Shown here: positions 1-49,497 of the stretch, piece by piece
How positions within the stretch are numbered: the first letter of the stretch is position 1
Layout: the number at the start of each line of letters is the position of its first letter
Source of the DNA: a virus
Taxonomy: Duplodnaviria; Heunggongvirae; Uroviricota; Caudoviricetes
Reading direction: 5' to 3' (one strand)
Length of the DNA stretch: 49,497 nt
Virus record (IMG/VR): IMGVR_UViG_2660238070_000012
Location: 1-49,497 of that record
Position numbers and translations under genes: made by a program
Notes under the pieces: model-generated
The model's database searches: none
The model's input: only the letters and a program-made list of their open reading frames with translations
What the model was told of the DNA's origin: nothing

Positions 1-1158
1 ATGCTCACCGTTAAGCAGATTGAAGCAGCAAAGCCGAAAGAAAAACCATACCGCCTACTCGATGGTAATGGCCTGTACCTTTATGTCCCTGTGTCAGGGA
101 AAAAGGTATGGCAGCTTCGCTACAAGATTGACGGTAAGGAGAAAATCCTGACCGTAGGAAAATATCCGCTAATGACTTTGCAGGAGGCAAGAGATAAAGC
201 ATGGACCGCGAGGAAAGACATCTCGGTTGGCATCGATCCGGTAAAAGCGAAAAAGGCTTCGTCTAACAACAATTCCTTTAGTGCCATTTACAAGGAATGG
301 TACGAGCACAAGAAGCAAGTCTGGTCAGTAGGCTATGCAACTGAACTTGCCAAAATGTTTGATGACGACATTTTACCCATCATCGGCGGTCTTGAGATTC
401 AGGATATTGAGCCGATGCAACTGCTGGAAGTAATCCGCAGATTTGAAGATCGCGGTGCAATGGAGCGAGCCAACAAAGCCCGCAGAAGATGCGGCGAGGT
501 TTTCCGTTACGCTATTGTCACCGGCAGGGCTAAATATAACCCGGCACCTGACCTTGCTGACGCCATGAATGGGTACCGCAAGAAGAACTTCCCGTTTCTT
601 CCTGCAGACCAGATCCCGGCATTCAATAAAGCACTGGCAACATTTTCAGGAAGTATCGTATCGCTCATTGCCACCAAGGTTTTACGCTACACTGCCCTAA
701 GAACGAAAGAGCTTCGTTCCATGCTATGGAAGAACGTCGATTTTGAAAACAGAATTATCACCATCGACGCCAATGTGATGAAGGGACGCAAAATTCATGT
801 GGTCCCGATGTCAGACCAGGTGGTTGAACTTCTCACTACGCTAAGCTCAATCACCAAACCAGTATCAGAGTTTGTTTTTGCCGGGCGCAACGATAAGAAG
901 AAGTCAATCTGCGAGAACGCGGTACTGCTTGTGATCAAACAAATCGGCTATGAAGGTCTGGAAAGCGGTCACGGATTCAGGCATGAATTCAGCACGATTA
1001 TGAACGAGCACGAATGGCCTGCTGACGCTATTGAAGTGCAACTGGCACATGCCAACGGCGGATCTGTGCGAGGGATTTACAACCATGCTCAGTATCTCGA
1101 TAAGCGCAGAGAAATGATGCAGTGGTGGGCGGACTGGATTGATGAAAAGGTGGAGTGA
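1..1158 (+). CDS. Tyrosine recombinase / phage integrase, P4/IntA-like family
   Basis: 385-aa ORF starting at the window edge. N-terminal AKPKEKPYRLLDGNGLYL motif and C-terminal GHGFRH...RGIYNHAQY catalytic region typical of tyrosine integrases. Clear paralog of the integrase at 39369-40544. Confidence 0.85.
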   Translation: MLTVKQIEAAKPKEKPYRLLDGNGLYLYVPVSGKKVWQLRYKIDGKEKILTVGKYPLMTLQEARDKAWTARKDISVGIDPVKAKKASSNNNSFSAIYKEWYEHKKQVWSVGYATELAKMFDDDILPIIGGLEIQDIEPMQLLEVIRRFEDRGAMERANKARRRCGEVFRYAIVTGRAKYNPAPDLADAMNGYRKKNFPFLPADQIPAFNKALATFSGSIVSLIATKVLRYTALRTKELRSMLWKNVDFENRIITIDANVMKGRKIHVVPMSDQVVELLTTLSSITKPVSEFVFAGRNDKKKSICENAVLLVIKQIGYEGLESGHGFRHEFSTIMNEHEWPADAIEVQLAHANGGSVRGIYNHAQYLDKRREMMQWWADWIDEKVE

Positions 1159-38919: not shown

Positions 38920-39120
38920 ATGCAACACGAACTACAACCTGATTCACTGGTTGATTTGAAATTCATCATGGCTGATACTGGCTTTGGTAAGACCTTCATC
39001 TATGACCGGATTAAGTCCGGAGACCTGCCTAAAGCCAAAGTTATCCACGGGCGAGCAAGATGGTTATATCGTGACCATTGTGAATTCAAAAATAAGCTCT
39101 TAAGCCGCGCCAATGGGTAA
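38920..39120 (+). CDS. xis: Excisionase / AlpA-family DNA-binding protein
   Basis: 66 aa, small HTH protein (LKFIMADTGFGKTFIYDRIKSGDLPKAKVIHGRARW) directly upstream of the integrase. Confidence 0.75.
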   Translation: MQHELQPDSLVDLKFIMADTGFGKTFIYDRIKSGDLPKAKVIHGRARWLYRDHCEFKNKLLSRANG

Positions 39121-39368
39121 AATAGCGGGTAAAATATTTTTCACATCTAAAAAACACCATTCCAATCAATCCCCTGCCGCCTCAAGTAGATGTCTGCAGG
39201 GGACACCATGAACACTTCTCACTAAGTTCAATTAATTCCATAACTCACTGTTTTAACTGATATCATCTCCTTATACTCGTCCAGCAAAGTACCATTATTT
39301 CTAATGGAATCTATACATCTTTGCGTATAACATTGTGTATAACTGAGTTCGATCTTTTTTCTATACAC

Positions 39369-40544
39369 ATGCTGCTATCTGACATCCAAATAAAAAGAGC
39401 AAAACCGAAGGACAAACCCTATACGCTTAACGATGGTATGGGGCTATCACTCCTGATCGACACAGCGGGCAGTAAAGGCTGGCGTTTTCGCTATCGCTTT
39501 GCAGGTAAGCCTAAGATGATTTCCTTTGGCGTATATGGCGATGTGTCGTTGGCACAGGCACGTACCAAACGTGATGAAGCGCGTTCGATGTTAGCCAACG
39601 GGATAAACCCAAGTGAAGCCAGAAAAGCAGATAAGATTGCTTTGCAGTTCGCGCATGAGAACAGCTTTGAGTCTGTGGCCAGAGAATGGCACTCATCGAA
39701 AAAAGCCACCTGGTCAGAGGGTTATGCAAAAGAGGTTCTCAATTGTATGGAAAAGGATATTTTTCCTTTTATCGGCCAGCGCCCAATTGAGCAGATTGAA
39801 CCATTAGAACTGCTAACCGTCCTGCAAAAAATAGAGAAAAGAGGTGCGCTAGAGCAAACCAGTAAGATCCGCCGCCGCTGTGGTGAAGTGCTTCGTTATG
39901 CTGTTGCCACTGGTAGAGCAAAGTATAATTTTGCACCCGATTTAGCTATCGCACTCAACAAACCTAAAACCCAACACTTCCCGTTCCTGACTGAAAGCGA
40001 GTTGCCCGAGTTCGTTAATGCTCTGGATAACTATCAGGGCAGTTTAGTTACCAAATACGCCACGCAGCTGTTGATGCTAACAGGCGTGCGAACAATTGAA
40101 CTACGTGCAGCGGAATGGGCTGAGTTTGATTTAGATAATGCCTTATGGGAGATCCCCAAAGAACGGATGAAGAAACGCCGCCCCCATCTGGTTCCGTTAT
40201 CAACTCAGGCGATCAATATCCTGAAAAAGCTGCAAGAAATAACAGGGAATTACAGCCTCGTTTTCCCTGGCCGGAATGACGTCAGTAAACCAATGAGCGA
40301 AGCCAGCATCAACAAAGTGATAAAACTACTGGGTTATCACGGTCGGTTAACGGGTCACGGTTTCAGGCATACCATGAGCACCATCTTGCATGAGCATGGG
40401 TTTGAAAGTGCCTGGATTGAAATGCAGCTTGCGCATGTTGATAAGAACTCTATTCGAGGTACTTACAATCATGCGCAATATATTAAAGATCGACAAGTAA
40501 TGATGGAATGGTACGCTAGCTTATTAAATACGACCTGCTATTAA
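39369..40544 (+). CDS. int: Tyrosine recombinase / phage integrase, P4/IntA-like family
   Basis: 391 aa from the ATG at 39369 (MLLSDIQIKRAKPKDKPYTLNDGMGLSL...). C-terminal GHGFRH...RGTYNHAQY catalytic region. Paralogous to the integrase at 1-1158. Confidence 0.9.
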   Translation: MLLSDIQIKRAKPKDKPYTLNDGMGLSLLIDTAGSKGWRFRYRFAGKPKMISFGVYGDVSLAQARTKRDEARSMLANGINPSEARKADKIALQFAHENSFESVAREWHSSKKATWSEGYAKEVLNCMEKDIFPFIGQRPIEQIEPLELLTVLQKIEKRGALEQTSKIRRRCGEVLRYAVATGRAKYNFAPDLAIALNKPKTQHFPFLTESELPEFVNALDNYQGSLVTKYATQLLMLTGVRTIELRAAEWAEFDLDNALWEIPKERMKKRRPHLVPLSTQAINILKKLQEITGNYSLVFPGRNDVSKPMSEASINKVIKLLGYHGRLTGHGFRHTMSTILHEHGFESAWIEMQLAHVDKNSIRGTYNHAQYIKDRQVMMEWYASLLNTTCY

Positions 40545-41474
40545 ATCCAGCATGAAACAAATATGGTGAGTAATTTGATACTGTTTGTTTTTTGGCAACC
40601 CAGGGAAATGCCTTACAGTTGGTTGACTATTGTAATAATAATAGTTAAGACCAATGTTGCTGCCAAACTGGGTTGGATGTTGGGGAACAAGATTTGTAAT
40701 TTGATCTGAAACATCTAAAAATTTTGCAGTAACATTTGAACTTCCTCGTTGCGTGTTGCTTGATACAAAATGACGAATCCAAACTGTATTCGCTTGTAAA
40801 TTCTTGAACACCAAATGTGCGGCAACAGCAGAAGGTTGACCACCTCCAAGATCTAGTACCTGGCCAGTAATTGTATAATCGCCAAATCCTAAGTAATTTT
40901 GTCCCACGAATTGATGTGCGTGCGTGAAAAGTTCCGGCCCATTATAATCAGCATTTTTTGCTAACTTTCTAAAGTTATCGCTAATAATAATTAACTTCGA
41001 CAAAGGAAGAAGAGCGCACTGATTAGGAAGCATTTTATTATTTAAAACAACATGATAACTAATCAATTGATTTGTCGCCAACAACTGAATATCAGAGTTG
41101 GATAATGATGGATTATCATATAGAAGTGCAACTCGTCTATTTAAGTTAGCATTCAACCAATTATTAATATCATTAATCGTTGTATTGGGCTGAATAAGAT
41201 ATCCAGAGATGATATTATTTTTATTTGTTAATACACTTGATAAATTTTGATTTAAAGTTAAGACGTTATTGTGTGAAGAAAAATCTTCCTGATAAGGATT
41301 AAGGATAACAATTATGTCAGAATTCCAAACATTTAAACATGTTAATAAATTTCTCGTATTGACGTTAATTGGTTCTAAAATTGGTAGCAGACCATTTAGG
41401 CTAACTCCCTTCGCAACGAGGTCCCTAAGGCATAATAACTCTGTACTTCTCGCATACAAATATGGGCTATACAT
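40524..41474 (-). CDS. Hypothetical protein, second gene of an AT-rich two-gene cassette
   Basis: 316 aa, Asn/Leu/Ile-rich. Low-GC codon usage unlike the flanking prophage. 3' end overlaps the integrase stop by 21 bp convergently. Confidence 0.65.
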   Translation of the reverse strand: MYSPYLYARSTELLCLRDLVAKGVSLNGLLPILEPINVNTRNLLTCLNVWNSDIIVILNPYQEDFSSHNNVLTLNQNLSSVLTNKNNIISGYLIQPNTTINDINNWLNANLNRRVALLYDNPSLSNSDIQLLATNQLISYHVVLNNKMLPNQCALLPLSKLIIISDNFRKLAKNADYNGPELFTHAHQFVGQNYLGFGDYTITGQVLDLGGGQPSAVAAHLVFKNLQANTVWIRHFVSSNTQRGSSNVTAKFLDVSDQITNLVPQHPTQFGSNIGLNYYYYNSQPTVRHFPGLPKNKQYQITHHICFMLDLIAGRI

Positions 41475-41495
41475 AACTTACAACTCCTGAGGATA

Positions 41496-42377
41496 TCAAC
41501 AAATTTTAATTTTTACATCCATCAAATTCATGATGAATTCTTTTTGCTTTCTTGATAATGGTGTTGCATAACCTAAAACACGTAAACATGCTGGAAGAGA
41601 ATAAATATAATCCAAAAAAACTTTATCGTTACATCTTTTTTTCATAGCAGAGATAAAGTATTTATTTGCTATGTTTAATGGCATCTGCATGAATATCTCT
41701 TTACAATATTCATAAACCAATCCGTTAGGCATATTTATTTTAGTTGAAGTGTAATCTTCTATTATAGCTAAGAACTCTTCCTTTCTAAGAACTGAAAACA
41801 AGCTGTCACTTTTAATATAATCAATATTTGAATCTGCCTCCTTAATGACACTCAATTGATCTTTTTTATTCAAAACCATAACTCCCACTCTGGGGAGATT
41901 TAAAGCACAATATTTACTTGCATACTCTGGATGTGTAACTATATACACTTTATCAAAAACATCCAAATAATCAGGGGCTTGAGTAATCAACCTTTTTGGT
42001 GAATCATACTCTGTCTTAATCTCGTAAGCTGTAGACGTACCATTAAACACCGCAACATCCACTATAGAGTTTTTAATTGGTAACTCTATGGACGACGAAC
42101 TTGTTTTTGGGCTGTGCTTACCGAATATTATTTTATTGACAAGTGCTGTCTTATAAACATATTCATTTCTATAATTCAGACGCAAAAAATCATATAATGA
42201 TGTAAATAAATCCCTTAGTGAAATCTCATGTTCATTATTATCATTGTTTGAAAACAGTGTTTCATAGCAGTAAGAATCAAAACTCCCAAATAAATCCGAA
42301 ATATCCTTACCTTTTGCTAAGGATGAAAAAATGGGGCGACGGAAAAATTTAGCATATTCCTTTTTATTATGACTCAT
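41496..42377 (-). CDS. Hypothetical protein with PD-(D/E)xK-like nuclease motif, first gene of AT-rich cassette
   Basis: 293 aa. IVDVAVFNGTSTAYEIKTEYD gives D-x10-E-x-K spacing typical of restriction-endonuclease-fold nucleases. Very AT-rich. 21-bp gap to the downstream gene. Confidence 0.65.
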   Translation of the reverse strand: MSHNKKEYAKFFRRPIFSSLAKGKDISDLFGSFDSYCYETLFSNNDNNEHEISLRDLFTSLYDFLRLNYRNEYVYKTALVNKIIFGKHSPKTSSSSIELPIKNSIVDVAVFNGTSTAYEIKTEYDSPKRLITQAPDYLDVFDKVYIVTHPEYASKYCALNLPRVGVMVLNKKDQLSVIKEADSNIDYIKSDSLFSVLRKEEFLAIIEDYTSTKINMPNGLVYEYCKEIFMQMPLNIANKYFISAMKKRCNDKVFLDYIYSLPACLRVLGYATPLSRKQKEFIMNLMDVKIKIC

Positions 42378-43056
42378 TACTCATACTCTATAAACATCAT
42401 GCAATTTGATAAGTTATGACGAATTCTCACCATCCAGTTACTACCTGTACATACTAATCAAAAAAAACGAGTACGCAAGATACGAAAGTACTTTTCTTGT
42501 TCACCAGTTAGCTTACCTTGATCCTCACCAGCGACTGGAAGATAGGTAGCAGTATATGTGGAAACCTTCCCCTAGCTAGGTCTACAAACGTAGTTTGGGC
42601 ATTTAGGCTCCACGATTCACGGTTTGACACGGCCTGATATCTGCACATTCGTTTTGATATGCAGCAATCGTGAAAAAGGAAAATATACGCTCGACAGACC
42701 AAAACGGCACTACACCGCACCCGCCTGCGGTTTTCATATCACTAAAAATTTTCAGCCTGGATTTTTTACAAACGATACCGCCAGTCCGTGCCAGTCCTCG
42801 AGATGTACTGCGATACAGGAACTGAAAAGAATGAAAAGAAATTCATTTTTTTTCAGTTTTACTGTCCGTCGAATCTATGGCCTGAATACGCAACTCTATG
42901 ATATTAAATGGATAATTAATTTTAGGTGTGTGATTTTATGAAGGTTTGTGAAACATGAAGAAGATAACCAGTTGAAAAATAATAATTTTATGACCGTATA
43001 AACTGAAATCCTGTGTTCAGGTTCCGGGAACAGATCGGCCATTCCCGACGCATACT

Positions 43057-43329
43057 TTACCCATTCTTTTGCGCAGCCAGCAGCAACTTTAAAGCCTTTT
43101 CCCGTTCCTCGGGTGGAATTGCATCAATCAGCTCTTTAACCCTTCCCTGCCCGTTCAGCGCGCTTGGACTAACGGAATGGGAGAAAGCAACATTCATCAC
43201 AAACGAGTGACCGCACTCCACATTAGAGCAATAGCAGTACACATCGTACAGTTGTGGGTGTTTCCTGTTTGTTTTACCTATCCGTGCTACTGCCTGACAT
43301 GTGGGGCAGTACATTCTCATCATCTTCAT
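43057..43329 (-). CDS. Ogr/Delta-family zinc-finger late transcription activator
   Basis: 90 aa: MYCPTCQ...VYCYCSNVECGHSF gives the C-x2-C...C-x4-C pattern of P2 Ogr / P4 Delta. True start may be an internal Met. Confidence 0.7.
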   Translation of the reverse strand: MKMMRMYCPTCQAVARIGKTNRKHPQLYDVYCYCSNVECGHSFVMNVAFSHSVSPSALNGQGRVKELIDAIPPEEREKALKLLLAAQKNG

Positions 43330-43394
43330 CGTTCTGTGCCCTATACTGTTGCCCGCCAGAAGAAGGGATTTGGATCCCTACCTCTTGTTCTGAA

Positions 43395-43590
43395 CGTGTA
43401 ACACTGGTAACACGTGTAACGCTATTGATTTAAAAGGATTTAATCTGTTACCAGTTAGCAAAATCAAGAGGTAACGCGTGGTAACACACCATTTTTTGTT
43501 ACCTCTGTTACCAGTCAGTATTTTTGACTGGTAACACTGAAGAACCGCATCAGTAACGGGTGTTACCTCTGTTACCAGTGTTACCTCATA
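43395..43590. repeat. Iteron cluster (GGTAACA / TGTTACC) downstream of the primase gene; candidate ori/crr
   Basis: At least 12 copies of the heptamer GGTAACA or its complement TGTTACC in both orientations within ~190 bp (for example TGTTACCTCTGTTACCAG twice). Confidence 0.6.
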
Positions 43591-43611
43591 AAAATAAGAC
43601 TCACGCGATAA

Positions 43612-46299
43612 TCACTCAGGTTCAGCGCTTCCCAGTACCTGTGTATTGAACTGGTACACACGTTTAAGCCCTATTTCTGGCAGGCGAATGCTGTTTTGCG
43701 TCCGGCCATCTTCACCGGGTTTCAGCCAGCCCGCGTCCACACACAACCTGGCCACCTTACGCGAGTCAAATCCCTTACAGATCTCCTTCCAGCCTGACGG
43801 GAGAACGTAGAACGTCACAACCGGCTCTGTCACGTTGTCTCCTTTATCGACTTTTCTGAATCCCATCATTGAAACAGGCCGGTTCCTGTCGTCATTCCAG
43901 TCAGCAAACCGACTGAACTGATTACGCGTCATGAAGTCCCGAACCTGTTCAAGTGCCGCTTTATCTTCCTGATTAGCTGTATGGCCCCGGTCAGCCATCC
44001 ATGCAGCCAGACAGCTTTGAGCGGCACGAAAGGCCTCTCCCTCCGGCCATCCTGTGATGCCCGCTTTTGTGGCCAGCTCCCCGGCCATCGCAACCAGAGC
44101 AAAACGGGTAACAGCCCGGCCAACCTGATTCCCGGCATTTTCCGGCGTCAGCCTTCGGGTATACTCTTTCAATAAGGCTTTCGCCTGACTGGTCAGTTCC
44201 GGCAGATCAGCGGTCAGGCAATACAGCCAGTCGCGGAATGGTGCACCATGATAATGCGCTACGTGCTGCTCAAGATGCTCAGCCAGGGTTTTCCCGCTAC
44301 TGAAGCCATGAAGTTCTTCAAACACGCCATACTTGCCCGAATCGCTTGGGATCTGGATCATTCTGACCTCAACCCCGGCATACGTACGTTCCCCGGCGCT
44401 TGCCGCATGCTCTACCAGTGACAGTTCCCCGGTAGACAGAAACAACAGATTCCAGCGGTTGGTTTCCCTTACCGAACCATCTGTTCTGGCTCTGGCTTTG
44501 CCCTGCCCGTTAGCCAGCATATAAGCGATATTTCCCGCCTCCCTGCCGTCAACCTCCCGGATTTCATCCAGCATCAGCGTGGCATCATTGCGGCGGCTCG
44601 CCGTTCCTTCTAAGGCATTCCCCGTCGCCCGCCACGTATGCCAGAAATCTGTTCCACCACATACTGATGCAGCCACTTTCATCGTCGTGGTTTTACCGTC
44701 TGTGGATTCCCCTTTGAGGTGATAACCTCCACCGCCGATACCAACCAGTTTCAGAAGGGGGGCAGCAAATGCCAGACTCACCGCAAAGGCAAGACGGGCA
44801 TTCTTTATGCAATAACGGCCTATATTTTCACGCCAGCCCTCTGATGTGCCGCTGACACGAAAATCACGCCCCTGCACACTCGATGTTTGTAAGATGACTG
44901 ACTGGGCTTCGCGCCCTATCACTTCATCCTGGAGAACGTAAACCCCGCCGTGCCAGCCAGTTTTATTCACACAGGTTACTTTTCTGTCCGGTTTACACAG
45001 CGAGATATATTCCATCAGGAATGCTCTGGCCATGCCGTTAATGTTGATGTAAGAAAGCCCGTTAACCAGCAGAACGCGGCGCAGTTCTTCCCCGCTACCG
45101 CCCAGCATCTCCATCGGCATTGCCCATTTACGGCTGTTTCCGTTGGTATCTTCCCATTCCAGCAAACGCCCGTAATTACTTCCATCAGCATCACTGGTGA
45201 TTGCCGTCACCCGCAACGGACTGCAAATTTTGATATTACGTATCTCTGTATCACCATCAGACTTATTAACCAGCTTGTCGTACCACAAATATTCTTTTGT
45301 CAGCCGGAACCCTTCTGGTAAACGGGTCTGCCCTTTGCCATGCAGCGTCATTTCTTCACGAAAGGCATCTCTCGCCCGTTCTTTCCCCACTTCCTGCCGA
45401 TAATCATCCCAGTCAGCCTTATGGCGTACCGGAGGGAGCGTTACCCAGCCATCCACCGCTTTGGCGGCTTTCTCTGCCTGAATACGCCCGGTGTTTTCTT
45501 TGCCGTCAGCCAGATCATTATCTCCGGCCAGAATGATCCGGGTTTCCGGCCAGCGTTTTCGGATCTGCTCCGTCACCTTCAGTAAATTGGTGGCAGCGAC
45601 AGCCGCCACGATCCATCCTTCAGTCAGCAGACTGACGGTAAGCGCCGTGGCAAAACCCTCAGTGATAATCACCTGTTCAGGTGTTTCAGCGGGTATATCG
45701 GTCAGGGCAATGAATGCGCCAGACAGCTGGCTACCGGGCAGCAGACTTTTATCCCCGTCAGGATTGATAAGCTGGCCACCAGTAATATTCCCGGAAATAT
45801 CCGTCAAAGGCAGCAGTAATGAACCGGTGGAAAATGTTATTCCGGCCAGATTCAAAGGCTGTGACAGCAAGGGAAGTGAATACCCGTGTAAGCTCTTATT
45901 TGTCAGATAGACCGGCTCACCATTGCAGGACTGCTGTCTGAGTCTGGTATATCGCTCCGCGCCCGCTTCTTTTCCTGCGGCCTTTTTCCTGGCTGGCAAT
46001 GCGGGCTTCTCCTGTATTTCTGGTAATGCAAGCGCCTCAGATACCATCCCGGCGACTTCTTTTATCTTTCTTCCTGTCACCAGACGAACCAGATCAAGAC
46101 CATCGCCATGACCGCACTGATTACAAAACCACGTCCCTCGCCCCGCTTTATCGTCCAGTCGAAAACGATCTTTTCCACCACAGGCAGGGCAAGCCCCATG
46201 ATGTCCTGCGGACGGTACTTTAATACCTAATGCTGACAGGATATAAGGCCAGCGCCCAATTGCAGCTCCGGAAATCGTGGATACAGACGGTGTTTTCAC
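43612..46299 (-). CDS. Primase-helicase, P4 alpha-like
   Basis: 895 aa. N-terminal zinc-binding primase motif (CPACGGKDRFR...CNQCGHGDGLD), Toprim-like region (IILAGDNDLADGKENTG), C-terminal helicase Walker A (LKGESTDGKTT). Confidence 0.85.
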   Translation of the reverse strand: MKTPSVSTISGAAIGRWPYILSALGIKVPSAGHHGACPACGGKDRFRLDDKAGRGTWFCNQCGHGDGLDLVRLVTGRKIKEVAGMVSEALALPEIQEKPALPARKKAAGKEAGAERYTRLRQQSCNGEPVYLTNKSLHGYSLPLLSQPLNLAGITFSTGSLLLPLTDISGNITGGQLINPDGDKSLLPGSQLSGAFIALTDIPAETPEQVIITEGFATALTVSLLTEGWIVAAVAATNLLKVTEQIRKRWPETRIILAGDNDLADGKENTGRIQAEKAAKAVDGWVTLPPVRHKADWDDYRQEVGKERARDAFREEMTLHGKGQTRLPEGFRLTKEYLWYDKLVNKSDGDTEIRNIKICSPLRVTAITSDADGSNYGRLLEWEDTNGNSRKWAMPMEMLGGSGEELRRVLLVNGLSYININGMARAFLMEYISLCKPDRKVTCVNKTGWHGGVYVLQDEVIGREAQSVILQTSSVQGRDFRVSGTSEGWRENIGRYCIKNARLAFAVSLAFAAPLLKLVGIGGGGYHLKGESTDGKTTTMKVAASVCGGTDFWHTWRATGNALEGTASRRNDATLMLDEIREVDGREAGNIAYMLANGQGKARARTDGSVRETNRWNLLFLSTGELSLVEHAASAGERTYAGVEVRMIQIPSDSGKYGVFEELHGFSSGKTLAEHLEQHVAHYHGAPFRDWLYCLTADLPELTSQAKALLKEYTRRLTPENAGNQVGRAVTRFALVAMAGELATKAGITGWPEGEAFRAAQSCLAAWMADRGHTANQEDKAALEQVRDFMTRNQFSRFADWNDDRNRPVSMMGFRKVDKGDNVTEPVVTFYVLPSGWKEICKGFDSRKVARLCVDAGWLKPGEDGRTQNSIRLPEIGLKRVYQFNTQVLGSAEPE

Positions 46300-46706
46300 A
46301 GCAGCACCTCCTGACCTTCCGGCTTCACAAATTCAAAACCTTCGGGTAGTTCGCCATCAGGTGCTCCGAAAATAATATCCCGGTAAACCTCACGCATCTC
46401 TGTGACACCAAAAACTGACAGGCGAATATTTTCTGACATAAAGCCTGGTTTAAGCATTTTTTCCAGTTTCTCTGCGGCCAGTATGCAACCAGCATCAGCC
46501 CCAAACTCATTCACCCACGGCATTTCAATATGGTAAATAATATTACTCACCACTTTTTCGTGGGAGAGTTCTATTCGTTCGCCATCTTCAATATAAACAG
46601 GTTCATTATGAACACGCACCATTAAGGAAATGAATGCATCAGCAATGTAGTAGCGTAAGACTGCTGTTCGTAAAGCATGCGCCTTTAAATTTTGATTATT
46701 ATTCAT
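46296..46706 (-). CDS. Hypothetical protein upstream of the primase (epsilon position)
   Basis: 136-aa ORF translationally coupled (ATGA) to the primase gene. Confidence 0.5.
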   Translation of the reverse strand: MNNNQNLKAHALRTAVLRYYIADAFISLMVRVHNEPVYIEDGERIELSHEKVVSNIIYHIEMPWVNEFGADAGCILAAEKLEKMLKPGFMSENIRLSVFGVTEMREVYRDIIFGAPDGELPEGFEFVKPEGQEVLL

Positions 46707-46935
46707 CGCGCATCACTCCCTTAATTGTGCTGGTTTCCTTAACAACGCCATCCAGTTGTTCGGCAATACAGGCCACTAAAGCCGCAGCGCCTTCCGCTGA
46801 AACAGTTCTCGCTCCATTCACTGTGGGCACGGACAAGACCTCTGCAAGAAACTCACTGGCCAGTGCCGCCCGTAACAGACGACTCTCCCCCTGTTCACTC
46901 AATATGCAGCCTTGCTTAAAATTCATGGATTTCAT
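46699..46935 (-). CDS. Hypothetical protein
   Basis: 78-aa ORF coupled to the downstream gene. Confidence 0.45.
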   Translation of the reverse strand: MKSMNFKQGCILSEQGESRLLRAALASEFLAEVLSVPTVNGARTVSAEGAAALVACIAEQLDGVVKETSTIKGVMRDE

Positions 46936-47135
46936 GCAACCACCTCCCCGGCTCTTTTCACAGGGATACGGGCAGCAAAGCTCAGGATAAATTCAGTGGC
47001 AAGTTTAAGGCGTGCAGCATGCTCGCATTCTGCGATTACACGCACAGGGCGTGGACGGGCATCACGGTCTGTACGGCGGACAGCCAGAAAGACAAAGGTA
47101 AATTCAGGGTGAGATAAAGCAGGGACTGTAGCCAT
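46932..47135 (-). CDS. Hypothetical small protein (possible DNA-binding regulator)
   Basis: 67 aa from the internal ATG at 47135 (MATVPALSHPEFTFVFLAVRRTDRDARPRPVRVIAECEHAARLKLATEF...). The longer listed ORF runs through a structured non-coding region. Confidence 0.4.
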   Translation of the reverse strand: MATVPALSHPEFTFVFLAVRRTDRDARPRPVRVIAECEHAARLKLATEFILSFAARIPVKRAGEVVA

Positions 47136-47146
47136 AATGGCAACCT

Positions 47147-47413
47147 CCTTCAGATAGCGGGTAACGCTACCACCGGAGTTCCTACGCTCATGGGTGGTAG
47201 CCCAGACGGGGGTAGGAATACCGGCTCTGAAGGATACCGGCCAGCCCGAAAGCTGCCCCGCCTGGACTACCATAATTCTGATGATGTGGCGTAAAAAATA
47301 AAAAAATACAATCAGCCACCACACCATAAATTTTAGGTGAGTCAAAGCTGCGACACAAAAAAACACGCCTAGCGCGTGTAGTATCGCCTTCAGATAACAC
47401 GGGTTCCTACGCC
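47147..47413. promoter_or_regulatory. Structured leader with two direct repeats and one inverted-complementary segment (candidate antisense-RNA control region)
   Basis: CCTTCAGATA..GGGT...TTCCTACGC occurs at 47147-47187 and 47387-47413. A partially complementary segment GTAGGAATACCGGCTCTGAAGG lies at 47212-47233. An internal hairpin GCTACCACC / GGTGGTAGC is at 47165-47201. Confidence 0.4.
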
Positions 47414-47609
47414 CGGCTGCCGATTTTGCGGCAACCTTTAAACTATATCCCGCGCATTCCTGGTGAGGCAAGAAATTTATAACCGAAAACTGATCATTGC
47501 CTGGATTAATTAACGCTGGCATGCTTAAGCCTCTGCTTAAAAATAGTTCTTCATTTTTCCTGATGCTGTAAACGAGACCCGCCTCTGAGCGGGTCTTTCT
47601 GTCGCTAAG

Positions 47610-48614
47610 TCAATCCGCAAACGTCAGGGTGCACTCATCAACAGCCGCGTACAGTTCAGGTTCACCGAGTGCATAACCTTCATTGCGCAGGTAGGAATGC
47701 ACGTATTCACTGCTTTCATCATCAAACTCAGCACGAAACCAGCGTGTTATCGCCTGAGTGTAAATATGCAGATTATCCAGCGTCGTTACTGCCAGACGCT
47801 TACCCGGCATAAACGGGGGAATAAACGCAAAGCGGCCAGCAACAGAACTTGTAGCCATCTGTGCCGCATTCACATCAGACGGGCGGTCTGCGGCATTAAA
47901 TAACTTCAGGCGTTGATGTGCTGCCAGCTCTGCCCCAACCAGTACAACCAGACGAGGATCTTCACGAAACTGCTCAGCAATAAGCTCTGTAATCAGATGG
48001 TTGGCCAGAGCATCAATATTTTTCCAGGTGCCAGTCTCTCCCAGAGTGACAGGCTCAGAGATGATTTGCTTTCCGTTCCCGTAGGCTTTCGCCAGTGCAT
48101 GCCAGCCAATATTGACATCCTCGCCTTTTTTATTGATTTCCGGGTTTGTAGTATTTGCAATCGACACACCGTTGAAACCGACCCGCAGCATGTCCAGCGC
48201 ATATGCCTGGGCAAAAAAGCTCTCAACCGTTTTCTCAAACTCATCCGGCACGCCGGTATGGTAAATATGAGACATATCGGAATAGCTGATCCGGGCGCAG
48301 GTATCCGTCTCTGTCAGAAAGAACTCCGTACCATTGATTGCCATTTTTTTGTGGAAACGGCCACCATCCACACGTCCGGTATACAGTTCACTGGCACCAA
48401 TATTGACGGCATTACCTGACACGGCGTTAACATCACGTAGGGTAATATTTTTAATAAGCCACCCGGATTCCAGAATTGAGGTACGCAGTATATTTTCAGT
48501 AGGTTCGCTTAATGCAAAGCGTCTGTTTGATTCTTCCTGATAGTTAGTGCCAGTGACGAATTTATTATGATAACGACGTGCTGCGTCCGGCCTTTCAGTT
48601 TTGAAGGCATACAT
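47610..48614 (-). CDS. Major capsid protein homolog, P2 gpN family
   Basis: 334 aa. GFNGV, GW, IDAL, EDPRLVVLVG and LDNLHIY align with recalled P2 gpN motifs (GFNGV, GW, LDAL, EDPDLVVIVG, LENLSIY). Based on recalled sequence only. Confidence 0.6.
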   Translation of the reverse strand: MYAFKTERPDAARRYHNKFVTGTNYQEESNRRFALSEPTENILRTSILESGWLIKNITLRDVNAVSGNAVNIGASELYTGRVDGGRFHKKMAINGTEFFLTETDTCARISYSDMSHIYHTGVPDEFEKTVESFFAQAYALDMLRVGFNGVSIANTTNPEINKKGEDVNIGWHALAKAYGNGKQIISEPVTLGETGTWKNIDALANHLITELIAEQFREDPRLVVLVGAELAAHQRLKLFNAADRPSDVNAAQMATSSVAGRFAFIPPFMPGKRLAVTTLDNLHIYTQAITRWFRAEFDDESSEYVHSYLRNEGYALGEPELYAAVDECTLTFAD

Positions 48615-48636
48615 AGTTTTTCACCTTTTTAAGTAT

Positions 48637-49497
48637 TTAAGAAAAGATTTTATTTTTGTACTCAGTAACCAGATTGTATTTCATTACATGCTCAACATAA
48701 TCCCGGTCACTTACGACTGAACGTAATACATAATTATCTGCTCGATAGTACTCCCTGTAAGCCATAGCTCTTGCCATTCCACCGTTATTTAATACATAAC
48801 GATCAGTTGGAACGCTACAACGACTAATAATTTCACTCACGGAATCAGATAAAGACTTGAGTGCATCAGTAATAAATTTAATATCACGGACAACGTCACT
48901 GTCATTAAATACAGAAATAAAATCAGCAGGGATCTGGCCGGATTGAGGAAATATATTCAGTAAACGCTTATCGATTCCCTTCCCAATGTAGTTTCCTTCA
49001 TCGGCCAGTACTCCCGGCAAAAGCTTGATCGTGCTCAATCGACTATGTTGTTCATTCAACCGGGAAACAGCCAGATGGTAATACCGTTCAGCATCCGCTC
49101 GTTCAGCATGCCCCATTTTATTCGTTTTGGCTTCAGCAATGCTACTGACGCCGTTTTTTGAGAATGTGCTTTTCCATGCAACTTCCGCATTTGTCACTTC
49201 ACGCTGCCGGAAAGATAACTCTTCCTCTTCCTGACGACACAACTGGGCATAACGGCTCAGGAGCAGGTTGATCTCATTCGCCACAGTTTCCGTATCAGGT
49301 ACTGTTAACCCCGTAAGTGAATACAGCTTTTCACCTTTAGCTCGCAGCTTATTCAGTGAATATATTTCAATAATACGCACAATACAGGCCGTGTCGCTAT
49401 GAGTCTCTTTAAATGATCTTACTTTGTAACTATCTAACACCGACACATGTTCGTTCTTAATTGATGCCAATTTCTTCTTAAAAACATTGTCAACCAT
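48637..49497 (-). CDS. Hypothetical protein (start coincides with window end)
   Basis: 286-aa ORF upstream of and co-oriented with the capsid homolog. Does not resemble recalled P2 gpO scaffold. May be N-terminally truncated by the window. Confidence 0.5.
   Translation of the reverse strand: MVDNVFKKKLASIKNEHVSVLDSYKVRSFKETHSDTACIVRIIEIYSLNKLRAKGEKLYSLTGLTVPDTETVANEINLLLSRYAQLCRQEEEELSFRQREVTNAEVAWKSTFSKNGVSSIAEAKTNKMGHAERADAERYYHLAVSRLNEQHSRLSTIKLLPGVLADEGNYIGKGIDKRLLNIFPQSGQIPADFISVFNDSDVVRDIKFITDALKSLSDSVSEIISRCSVPTDRYVLNNGGMARAMAYREYYRADNYVLRSVVSDRDYVEHVMKYNLVTEYKNKIFS

Follow-up and report, generated by a model that had tools for sequence, protein, structure and literature searches.

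A Gop-less relative of the P4 gop-β-cII locus, carried as exchangeable cargo of an argW satellite, is a predicted two-gene defence system

The window analysed here is the whole 49,497-nucleotide stretch of viral DNA in IMG/VR record IMGVR_UViG_2660238070_000012 (Caudoviricetes). It contains an AT-rich cassette of two genes, here called A and B, whose products are related to the cII and β proteins of satellite phage P4. The two genes and the region in front of them are as follows.

42377..41496, minus strand: gene A, 293 residues; sce7726 / Phage_P4_cII family, PD-(D/E)xK (MmcB/RecB-like) nuclease fold; proposed effector
41474..40524, minus strand: gene B, 316 residues; sce7725 family, TIM-barrel-like, distant P4 β homologue; proposed sensor/controller, possibly an enzyme
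42378..42696, minus strand: module-specific upstream region of A, inside the cargo-specific segment that ends at breakpoint 42697

Genes A and B are separated by 21 bp, and an AGGAG ribosome-binding site lies 8 nt 5′ of the ATG of B. Therefore, the two genes form an operon with A first. The upstream region 42378..42696 presumably contains the promoter of A; a promoter scan upstream of A gave weak promoter-like matches only, none of them convincing. At the other end, the 3′ ends of B and of a convergent integrase gene overlap by 21 bp. The GC content is 0.306 for A, 0.340 for B and 0.324 for the whole cassette, and the last value is the minimum over all 1854-bp windows of the stretch (mean 0.469, standard deviation 0.041). 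An earlier reading of the sequence alone (the original prediction) had described two co-oriented open reading frames of 293 and 316 residues with 21-bp spacing, far more AT-rich than their flanks. Both points are confirmed, with the correction that the two genes lie on the minus strand.

Protein A scores 175.6 bits against the NCBIfam model NF033832 for sce7726 (E 9.6e-52, cut-off 70 bits). The PADLOC model 'cll' matches A at 1.2e-18, and the same model scores P4 cII at 3e-113. The two proteins belong to the same PHROG, 984, and BLASTP aligns them at 9e-11 across the catalytic core. RefSeq labels P4 cII itself a "sce7726 family protein". For PF26915 (Phage_P4_cII), precomputed matches exist for the 100%-identical protein P0074 and for all listed homologues; the local Pfam scan of A was empty, the model being presumably missing.

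Ten residues are invariant among 36 diverse members of the A family: E72, E98, D107, E119, K121, D125, R129, Q133, D136 and Y137. The order E...D...ExK...QxxxY (Q133xxxY137) is what we take to be the RecB/Cas4-type PD-(D/E)xK motif set. In the AlphaFold2 model of A (predicted local distance difference test score, pLDDT, 92.8), D107 and E119-x-K121 lie on consecutive core strands. The core has the αβββαβ arrangement of a PD-(D/E)xK fold, with strand 2 bearing the acidic residue and strand 3 the (D/E)xK, and A has helical N- and C-terminal parts besides it. The D107...E119-x-K121 motif, whose spacing had been read as the mark of such a nuclease, thus proves to be family-invariant and properly placed on the strands of the fold. 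The best structural match is an MmcB-like protein, PDB 3dnx. Profile searches against PDB sequences gave only noise for the A and B families, and neither has a solved structure detectable by sequence. Protein A shares the core fold and motif order with MmcB-like and RecB-like nucleases (PDB 3dnx, NucS, Cas4-type), but the identity is 12-15%, and A differs from them in its extra helical domains and its obligate TIM-barrel partner. These comparisons show A to be a homologue of P4 cII; with the modelled PD-(D/E)xK fold and the full catalytic motif set, it is a predicted nuclease.

Protein B scores 242.2 bits against NCBIfam NF033831 for sce7725 (E 1.1e-71, residues 1-311 of 312, cut-off 60 bits). 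It has no Pfam match and no PADLOC match, the PADLOC 'beta' and PD-Lambda-2_C models included, and the 'beta' model does not match three other sce7725 members either. BLASTP of B against P4 β is not significant, and profile methods are required. Alignment of the sce7725 profile with the β-family profile by hhalign gave 90%, E 1.6e-6 over 251 columns, and it matches an N-terminal YxPxLxxRxxEL motif and a GDY/GDH motif. The Pfam family PF14350 (Beta_protein) is matched below threshold by 12 of 43 sce7725 members (best 1.4e-4), and no other family is matched by more than one member. The gathering threshold of PF14350 is not reached, B itself being without a match. Judged by profile comparison, B is a distant β relative that belongs to a related family and is not a member of PF14350.

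At 50% identity and E<=1e-3, the sce7725 family forms 1,490 clusters within a set of 1.84 billion representatives, and the best 150 matches listed are all single-domain proteins of 270-327 residues. Sixteen positions are invariant in the family, including E12, E34, N59, D199, H220, H235, S238, K297 and H304. The roughly 16 invariant polar or aromatic residues, together with the barrel fold, are more suggestive of an active site than of a partner that only binds. The structural matches of B resemble barrels of the aldolase/lyase type. Foldseek of the B model against BFVD gave one real match, a 379-residue uncharacterised protein of Gordonia phage Powerball (E 2.6e-9), and did not return P4 β itself. 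Barrels of the β-like kind may also occur in actinophages. A sce7725-family protein was detected by liquid chromatography–mass spectrometry in clinical E. coli isolates (PMC8203672), which suggests that the operon is expressed.

The original prediction had left the two proteins unplaced and had proposed Pfam, defence-profile and structure searches. They can now be placed as NCBIfam sce7726 and sce7725, and A also as Pfam Phage_P4_cII and PADLOC 'cll'. The proposed searches themselves succeeded in part. The Pfam scan gave nothing usable; PADLOC recognised A through 'cll' and had no model for B that matched. The structure search led to 3dnx for A, and for B only to general barrels plus the Gordonia phage protein.

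The two genes keep company wherever they were found. In each of the 17 independent loci examined outside E. coli, a cII-like gene directly adjoins the sce7725 gene. These loci come from Pseudomonas, Hafnia, Yersinia, Morganella, Pantoea, Tatumella, Curvibacter, Variovorax and Duganella, as well as Lysobacter, Janthinobacterium, Massilia, Rugamonas, a Pyrinomonadaceae metagenome-assembled genome (MAG) and others. In Proteobacteria the genes are co-oriented, A then B, and in the acidobacterial locus they are convergent. The β-type loci of P4, Methylibium, P. aeruginosa and Acinetobacter consist of a small gop-like open reading frame, β and then a convergent cII, and in all of them the β-like and cII-like genes are adjacent. 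Scores of hidden Markov models (HMMs) separate two co-diverging clades, sce7726 with sce7725 and cII with β (and gop), and this co-divergence suggests that the partners interact functionally. Neither the window nor any locus of the sce7725 type has a six-frame match (E<=10) to a gop HMM made from P4 and three loci. An all-against-all comparison of the neighbour proteins revealed only recurrent integrases and DUF927 primases, and no third gene that is conserved with the pair. The β-like/cII-like pair is the conserved unit, and gop is an add-on.

Gop-like open reading frames lie upstream of β in Methylibium, P. aeruginosa and Acinetobacter (L006 5519-6004, L007 5563-5994 and L009 5679-6008). They have two hydrophobic segments followed by a coiled-coil-like tail. 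Because they are conserved in this position, the three-gene gop-β-cII form is not limited to P4 or to enterobacteria.

Natural disruptions of the cassette bear on the relation between the two proteins. In E. coli THO-015 (L043 1625-3352) an IS1 element splits B, and the upstream A keeps an identical protein accession. IS1 is also found within the cassette in two further genomes (H2 and H3). In a MAG, locus L042, B is split and A apparently intact; in L040 the reverse is seen. Seeing that a split B coexists with an unchanged or apparently intact A, B is not an antidote that natively expressed A requires. This speaks against a simple toxin–antitoxin pair; it agrees with B as a sensor or activator, a role comparable to that of PD-λ-2C (see below). 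Compensating changes that went unseen in the genomes with a split B are possible.

The scan of genomes for related loci used one narrow pattern and yielded 13 loci. The neighbour set, drawn from 13 loci, comprises 92 proteins. Among these neighbours are 6 integrases, 2 DUF927 primases, 2 proteins that match Lamassu LmuB models, 2 that match LmuA/Cap4-nuclease models, 2 ThsB-type TIR proteins, one SLFN-helicase and one AspBHI-type restriction protein. The Pseudomonas copy is flanked by HipBA and a Bro-N protein, and the P. aeruginosa β locus by HigBA and a filamentous prophage. In Leptospira, a published study locates the pair on an island of low GC content that has an IS1595 element. The sample being small and without a background control, this defence-gene neighbourhood is supportive only.

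The P4 gop-β-cII locus defends E. coli from λ and P1; Gop, a protein with two transmembrane segments, is toxic when β is absent, and gop/β has been called a toxin–antitoxin-like pair (PMC9122126). The phage accessory gene orf184 triggers gop-β-cII toxicity (bioRxiv 10.1101/2023.04.06.535777). In PD-λ-2, defence requires the β-like component PD-λ-2C, but the toxin is neutralised without it (Vassallo et al., PMC9519451). P4 β (L001 651-1718) matches the PADLOC PD-Lambda-2_C model at 8e-14. Members of the β family are therefore part of no fewer than two defence systems validated by experiment, and their partner genes in these systems are unrelated.

The present cassette resembles gop-β-cII (DefenseFinder 'gop_beta_cll'; PADLOC gop, beta and cll) in that A is a clear cII homologue and B a distant homologue of β, in that the β-like and cII-like genes are always adjacent, and in that each of the two is cargo near the integrase of a P2-type satellite. 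The comparison with P4 gop/beta made in the original prediction thus goes further than was claimed. The two also differ. The pair here is without gop, and it forms a co-oriented operon, A then B, whereas β and cII converge in P4. B fails the Pfam Beta_protein and PADLOC beta models. A has an N-terminal extension of about 65 residues and is without the C-terminal tail of cII. The host satellite is not P4-like, having no psu or sid and a capsid gene of its own, and the anti-phage activity of the present pair is a prediction. With PD-λ-2 (Vassallo et al. 2022) the likeness lies in the third component, a β-family protein with the role that is proposed here for B; a HigB-like toxin and an Xre-peptidase accompany it there, with no nuclease, and B misses the PD-Lambda-2_C model.

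To assign the cassette to its owner element, the following features of the window are needed.

39194..39208, plus strand: copy of the argW 3′ end, 15 bp, CTGCAGGGGACACCA; att core and prophage/satellite junction
39369..40544 (PGAP start; the longest open reading frame starts at 39321), plus strand: P4-type tyrosine integrase of the argW satellite, with Pfam Arm-DNA-bind_3, Phage_int_M and Phage_integrase
43057..43329, minus strand: Ogr/Delta-like zinc-finger activator of the satellite, conserved flank (PF04606, 5e-14)
43612..46299, minus strand: satellite primase-helicase, P4 alpha-like, with Zn-ribbon, Toprim and DUF927
1..1158: second P4-type integrase, the prophage's own; 45% identical to the integrase at 39369..40544

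The sequence CTGCAGGGGACACCA is the last 15 nt of tRNA-Arg argW and occurs once in the window; no intact tRNA was found in the window. Identity with E. coli SK1144 starts at CTGCAGGGGACACCA, where the annotated tRNA-Arg of SK1144 ends. SK1144 has the same DNA (99.99% over 39194..49497) directly after argW, and the prophage is absent there. Its gene order is argW, int, sce7725, sce7726, ogr/Delta, the DUF927 primase, two hypothetical genes, an Icd/Ash-like gene, a P2-family major capsid gene, a hypothetical gene, a helix-turn-helix (HTH) regulator and dsdC. Because a second P4-type integrase lies at 1..1158 and the satellite stands next to argW without the prophage in SK1144, the window consists of two tandem argW elements, a lambdoid prophage at 1..~39193 and a satellite of about 11 kb, each with its own integrase. 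The integrase beside the cassette had originally been assigned to the prophage, and the cassette to a position between that integrase and a satellite-like element. This assignment is rejected: the satellite integrase adjoins argW in the prophage-free SK1144, the prophage has its integrase at 1..1158, and the cassette lies inside the satellite.

The element is a satellite of P2-type phages with capsid genes, unlike P4. It encodes a P2-family major capsid protein (PF05125, 1e-66; region 46932-49497), an Ash/Icd-like protein, a DUF927 primase and Ogr/Delta, and no psu or sid is present in the element. The Yersinia version (L012 621-2152) also encodes a GPO_N scaffold-like protein.

Comparison with sister satellites defines the slot that the cassette occupies.

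~40518..42696: swappable cargo module in the int-to-ogr slot of the satellite, delimited by breakpoints against sister satellites
42704..42731, both strands: GC-rich hairpin ACCGCACCCGCCTGCGGT, terminator-like, at the conserved right edge of the slot

Homology to the sister satellites breaks off within the final codons of int, at 40517/40485, and starts again at 42697/42699. The module thus takes in 319 bp upstream of A as well as the last codons of the integrase. Boundaries near 40545 and 42380 had been proposed from base composition; the comparative breakpoints move them to ~40486/40518 and 42696. The sister satellites SC434 (L014) and FDAARGOS_1261 (L015) both have a diverged integrase. In SC434 the slot holds a reverse transcriptase and the retron Ec48 effector, and in FDAARGOS_1261 an AAA ATPase and a DUF4435 protein (PARIS-type pair). 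The slot is therefore a defence hotspot in the operational sense, the same flanks enclosing alternative known defence systems in related elements. The cargo swaps with sharp breakpoints, which bears out the idea of separate acquisition into an integrase-proximal slot. The hairpin at 42704..42731 may insulate the cargo from ogr/Delta transcription, or may mark a recombination boundary.

With the P4/P2 hotspots of Rousset et al. 2022 this slot shares the place next to the integrase of a satellite and the mutually exclusive cargos (retron Ec48, the PARIS-like pair and the present pair). It belongs to another satellite family, and its flanks are int and ogr/Delta instead of psu, cos and int. The P4-like hotspot of Rousset 2022 is defined as the psu/cos-to-int locus, and the present slot falls outside that definition, since psu and sid are absent, int and ogr/Delta form the flanks and a P2-family capsid gene is present in the element.

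Of 5426 complete E. coli genomes, 439 have the satellite integrase and 425 have the cassette, 422 of them at >=99% identity. A satellite of this type is also present in Yersinia enterocolitica, where the two proteins of the pair are 50-56% identical to those here; the element there contains Phage_cap_P2, GPO_N, DUF927, Ogr_Delta, A, B and int.

The cassette is best explained as a two-gene, Gop-less relative of gop-β-cII, and most likely it is an anti-phage or inter-element defence system, an interpretation that we hold with moderate confidence. It is based on the homology to validated systems, the nuclease fold, the constant pairing and the slot, which holds known defence systems in sister elements. 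A role in defence or exclusion, as first suggested, stays the best reading of the predicted function. The cassette would be a self-contained operon that travels as exchangeable cargo of the ~11-kb argW satellite. B would detect or transduce an infection cue as a sensor or activator, possibly as an enzyme, and would not be a simple antitoxin. It would license A to cut DNA. A would be the effector, and its target may be phage or invader DNA, or host DNA in the manner of abortive infection. P4 and PD-λ-2 may contain the same kind of module wired to other effectors. Our confidence in these mechanistic details is lower than in a defence role overall.

Four other explanations were weighed. It is unlikely that the cassette is a plain toxin–antitoxin or addiction module that stabilises the satellite, with A a toxic nuclease, B its antitoxin and no role in phage defence. 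The literature does term P4 gop/β toxin–antitoxin-like, and in the classical view β is the antidote to Gop; both genes are tightly linked on a mobile element, and toxin–antitoxin modules (HipBA, HigBA) adjoin relatives. However, the IS1 in B of THO-015 leaves the A accession identical, two more genomes have IS1 in the cassette, and the split B of L042 beside an apparently intact A, with the reverse in L040, speaks against an antidote as well. Moreover, the toxin of PD-λ-2 is neutralised even without the β-like PD-λ-2C, and the invariant polar and aromatic residues of B on a barrel look enzyme-like, not like a labile antitoxin. A function in the satellite life cycle, either lysogeny control or interference with the helper phage by a nuclease directed at helper DNA, in place of general immunity, seems rather improbable. 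The name of P4 cII derives from a lysogeny phenotype and implies such control, and the cassette recurs between the integrase and the DUF927 primase in E. coli, Yersinia, Morganella and a Variovorax MAG. Yet the pair is also found away from any satellite genes (L003, L004 and L010), and unrelated defence systems fill the slot in sister satellites, so that the cassette is not needed for the satellite life cycle.

An accessory DNA-repair or metabolic pair, made of an MmcB-like repair endonuclease and a TIM-barrel enzyme, is quite improbable. It would agree with 3dnx as the best structural match of A, with the HHpred match of P4 cII to the MmcB-like family at 99.8% (Rousset Table S3), with the aldolase/lyase-type barrel of B and with the position of L004 among housekeeping genes. 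The patchy distribution, the AT-rich and horizontally acquired cassette, the swappable slot with retron or PARIS-like alternatives and the integrase association disagree with it. We regard as very improbable a logic like restriction-modification, in which B would modify DNA or the nucleotide pool and A would cut unmodified or modified DNA. The TGT-type match does not stand out from those to dozens of unrelated barrels, the searches revealed no domain for cofactor binding or target recognition, and B is dispensable with A intact, which would be lethal in a classical restriction-modification pair. Taken together, the four explanations hold an appreciable minority share of the probability.

A broader idea is possible, although doubtful. 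The β-like TIM barrels (P4 β, PD-λ-2C and sce7725) might be a conserved catalytic module for infection sensing and signal processing, with Gop, the HigB/peptidase pair or the cII/sce7726 nuclease as effectors, and the sce7725/sce7726 pair might be its minimal ancestral core. If true, this would be a new class of enzyme-based phage sensor, with ~1,500 sequence clusters across bacteria and presence in ~8% of complete E. coli genomes.

Both genes are already known as named RefSeq families, one of them recognised as cII-like. Searches of the literature on sce7725/sce7726, PF14350/PF26915 and MmcB-like proteins with anti-phage terms gave annotation mentions only, and no mechanism for β or cII was found in the literature searched. 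Neither the accessions nor the peptide strings of the pair had a match in the searched parts of the supplementary tables of Rousset 2022. Four points appear to be undescribed in the literature searched: sce7725 as a relative of β; the β-like/cII-like pair, and not gop/β, as the core; the widespread two-gene form without gop; and the defence slot in a non-P4 satellite family.

The gop-β-cII and PD-λ-2 systems are validated in defence. The simpler pair, with the nuclease as its sole recognisable effector, could be the most tractable entry to the function of β-like barrels. The idea of satellite defence hotspots is extended to a second, non-P4 family of P2-type satellites. Within a large clinical lineage of E. 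coli, including strains labelled ST131, the cassette is nearly fixed (>=99% identity), and its prevalence there could affect the host range of phages used in therapy.

The window and the matching ~50-kb IMG/VR proviruses fuse the lambdoid prophage with part of the satellite. At the right end of the prophage, just before the att copy, a 66-residue open reading frame (38920-39120) resembles an AlpA/Xis-type excisionase by eye; it has no Pfam match at E<=0.001. The prophage integrase lies 38 kb away from it, at the opposite end.

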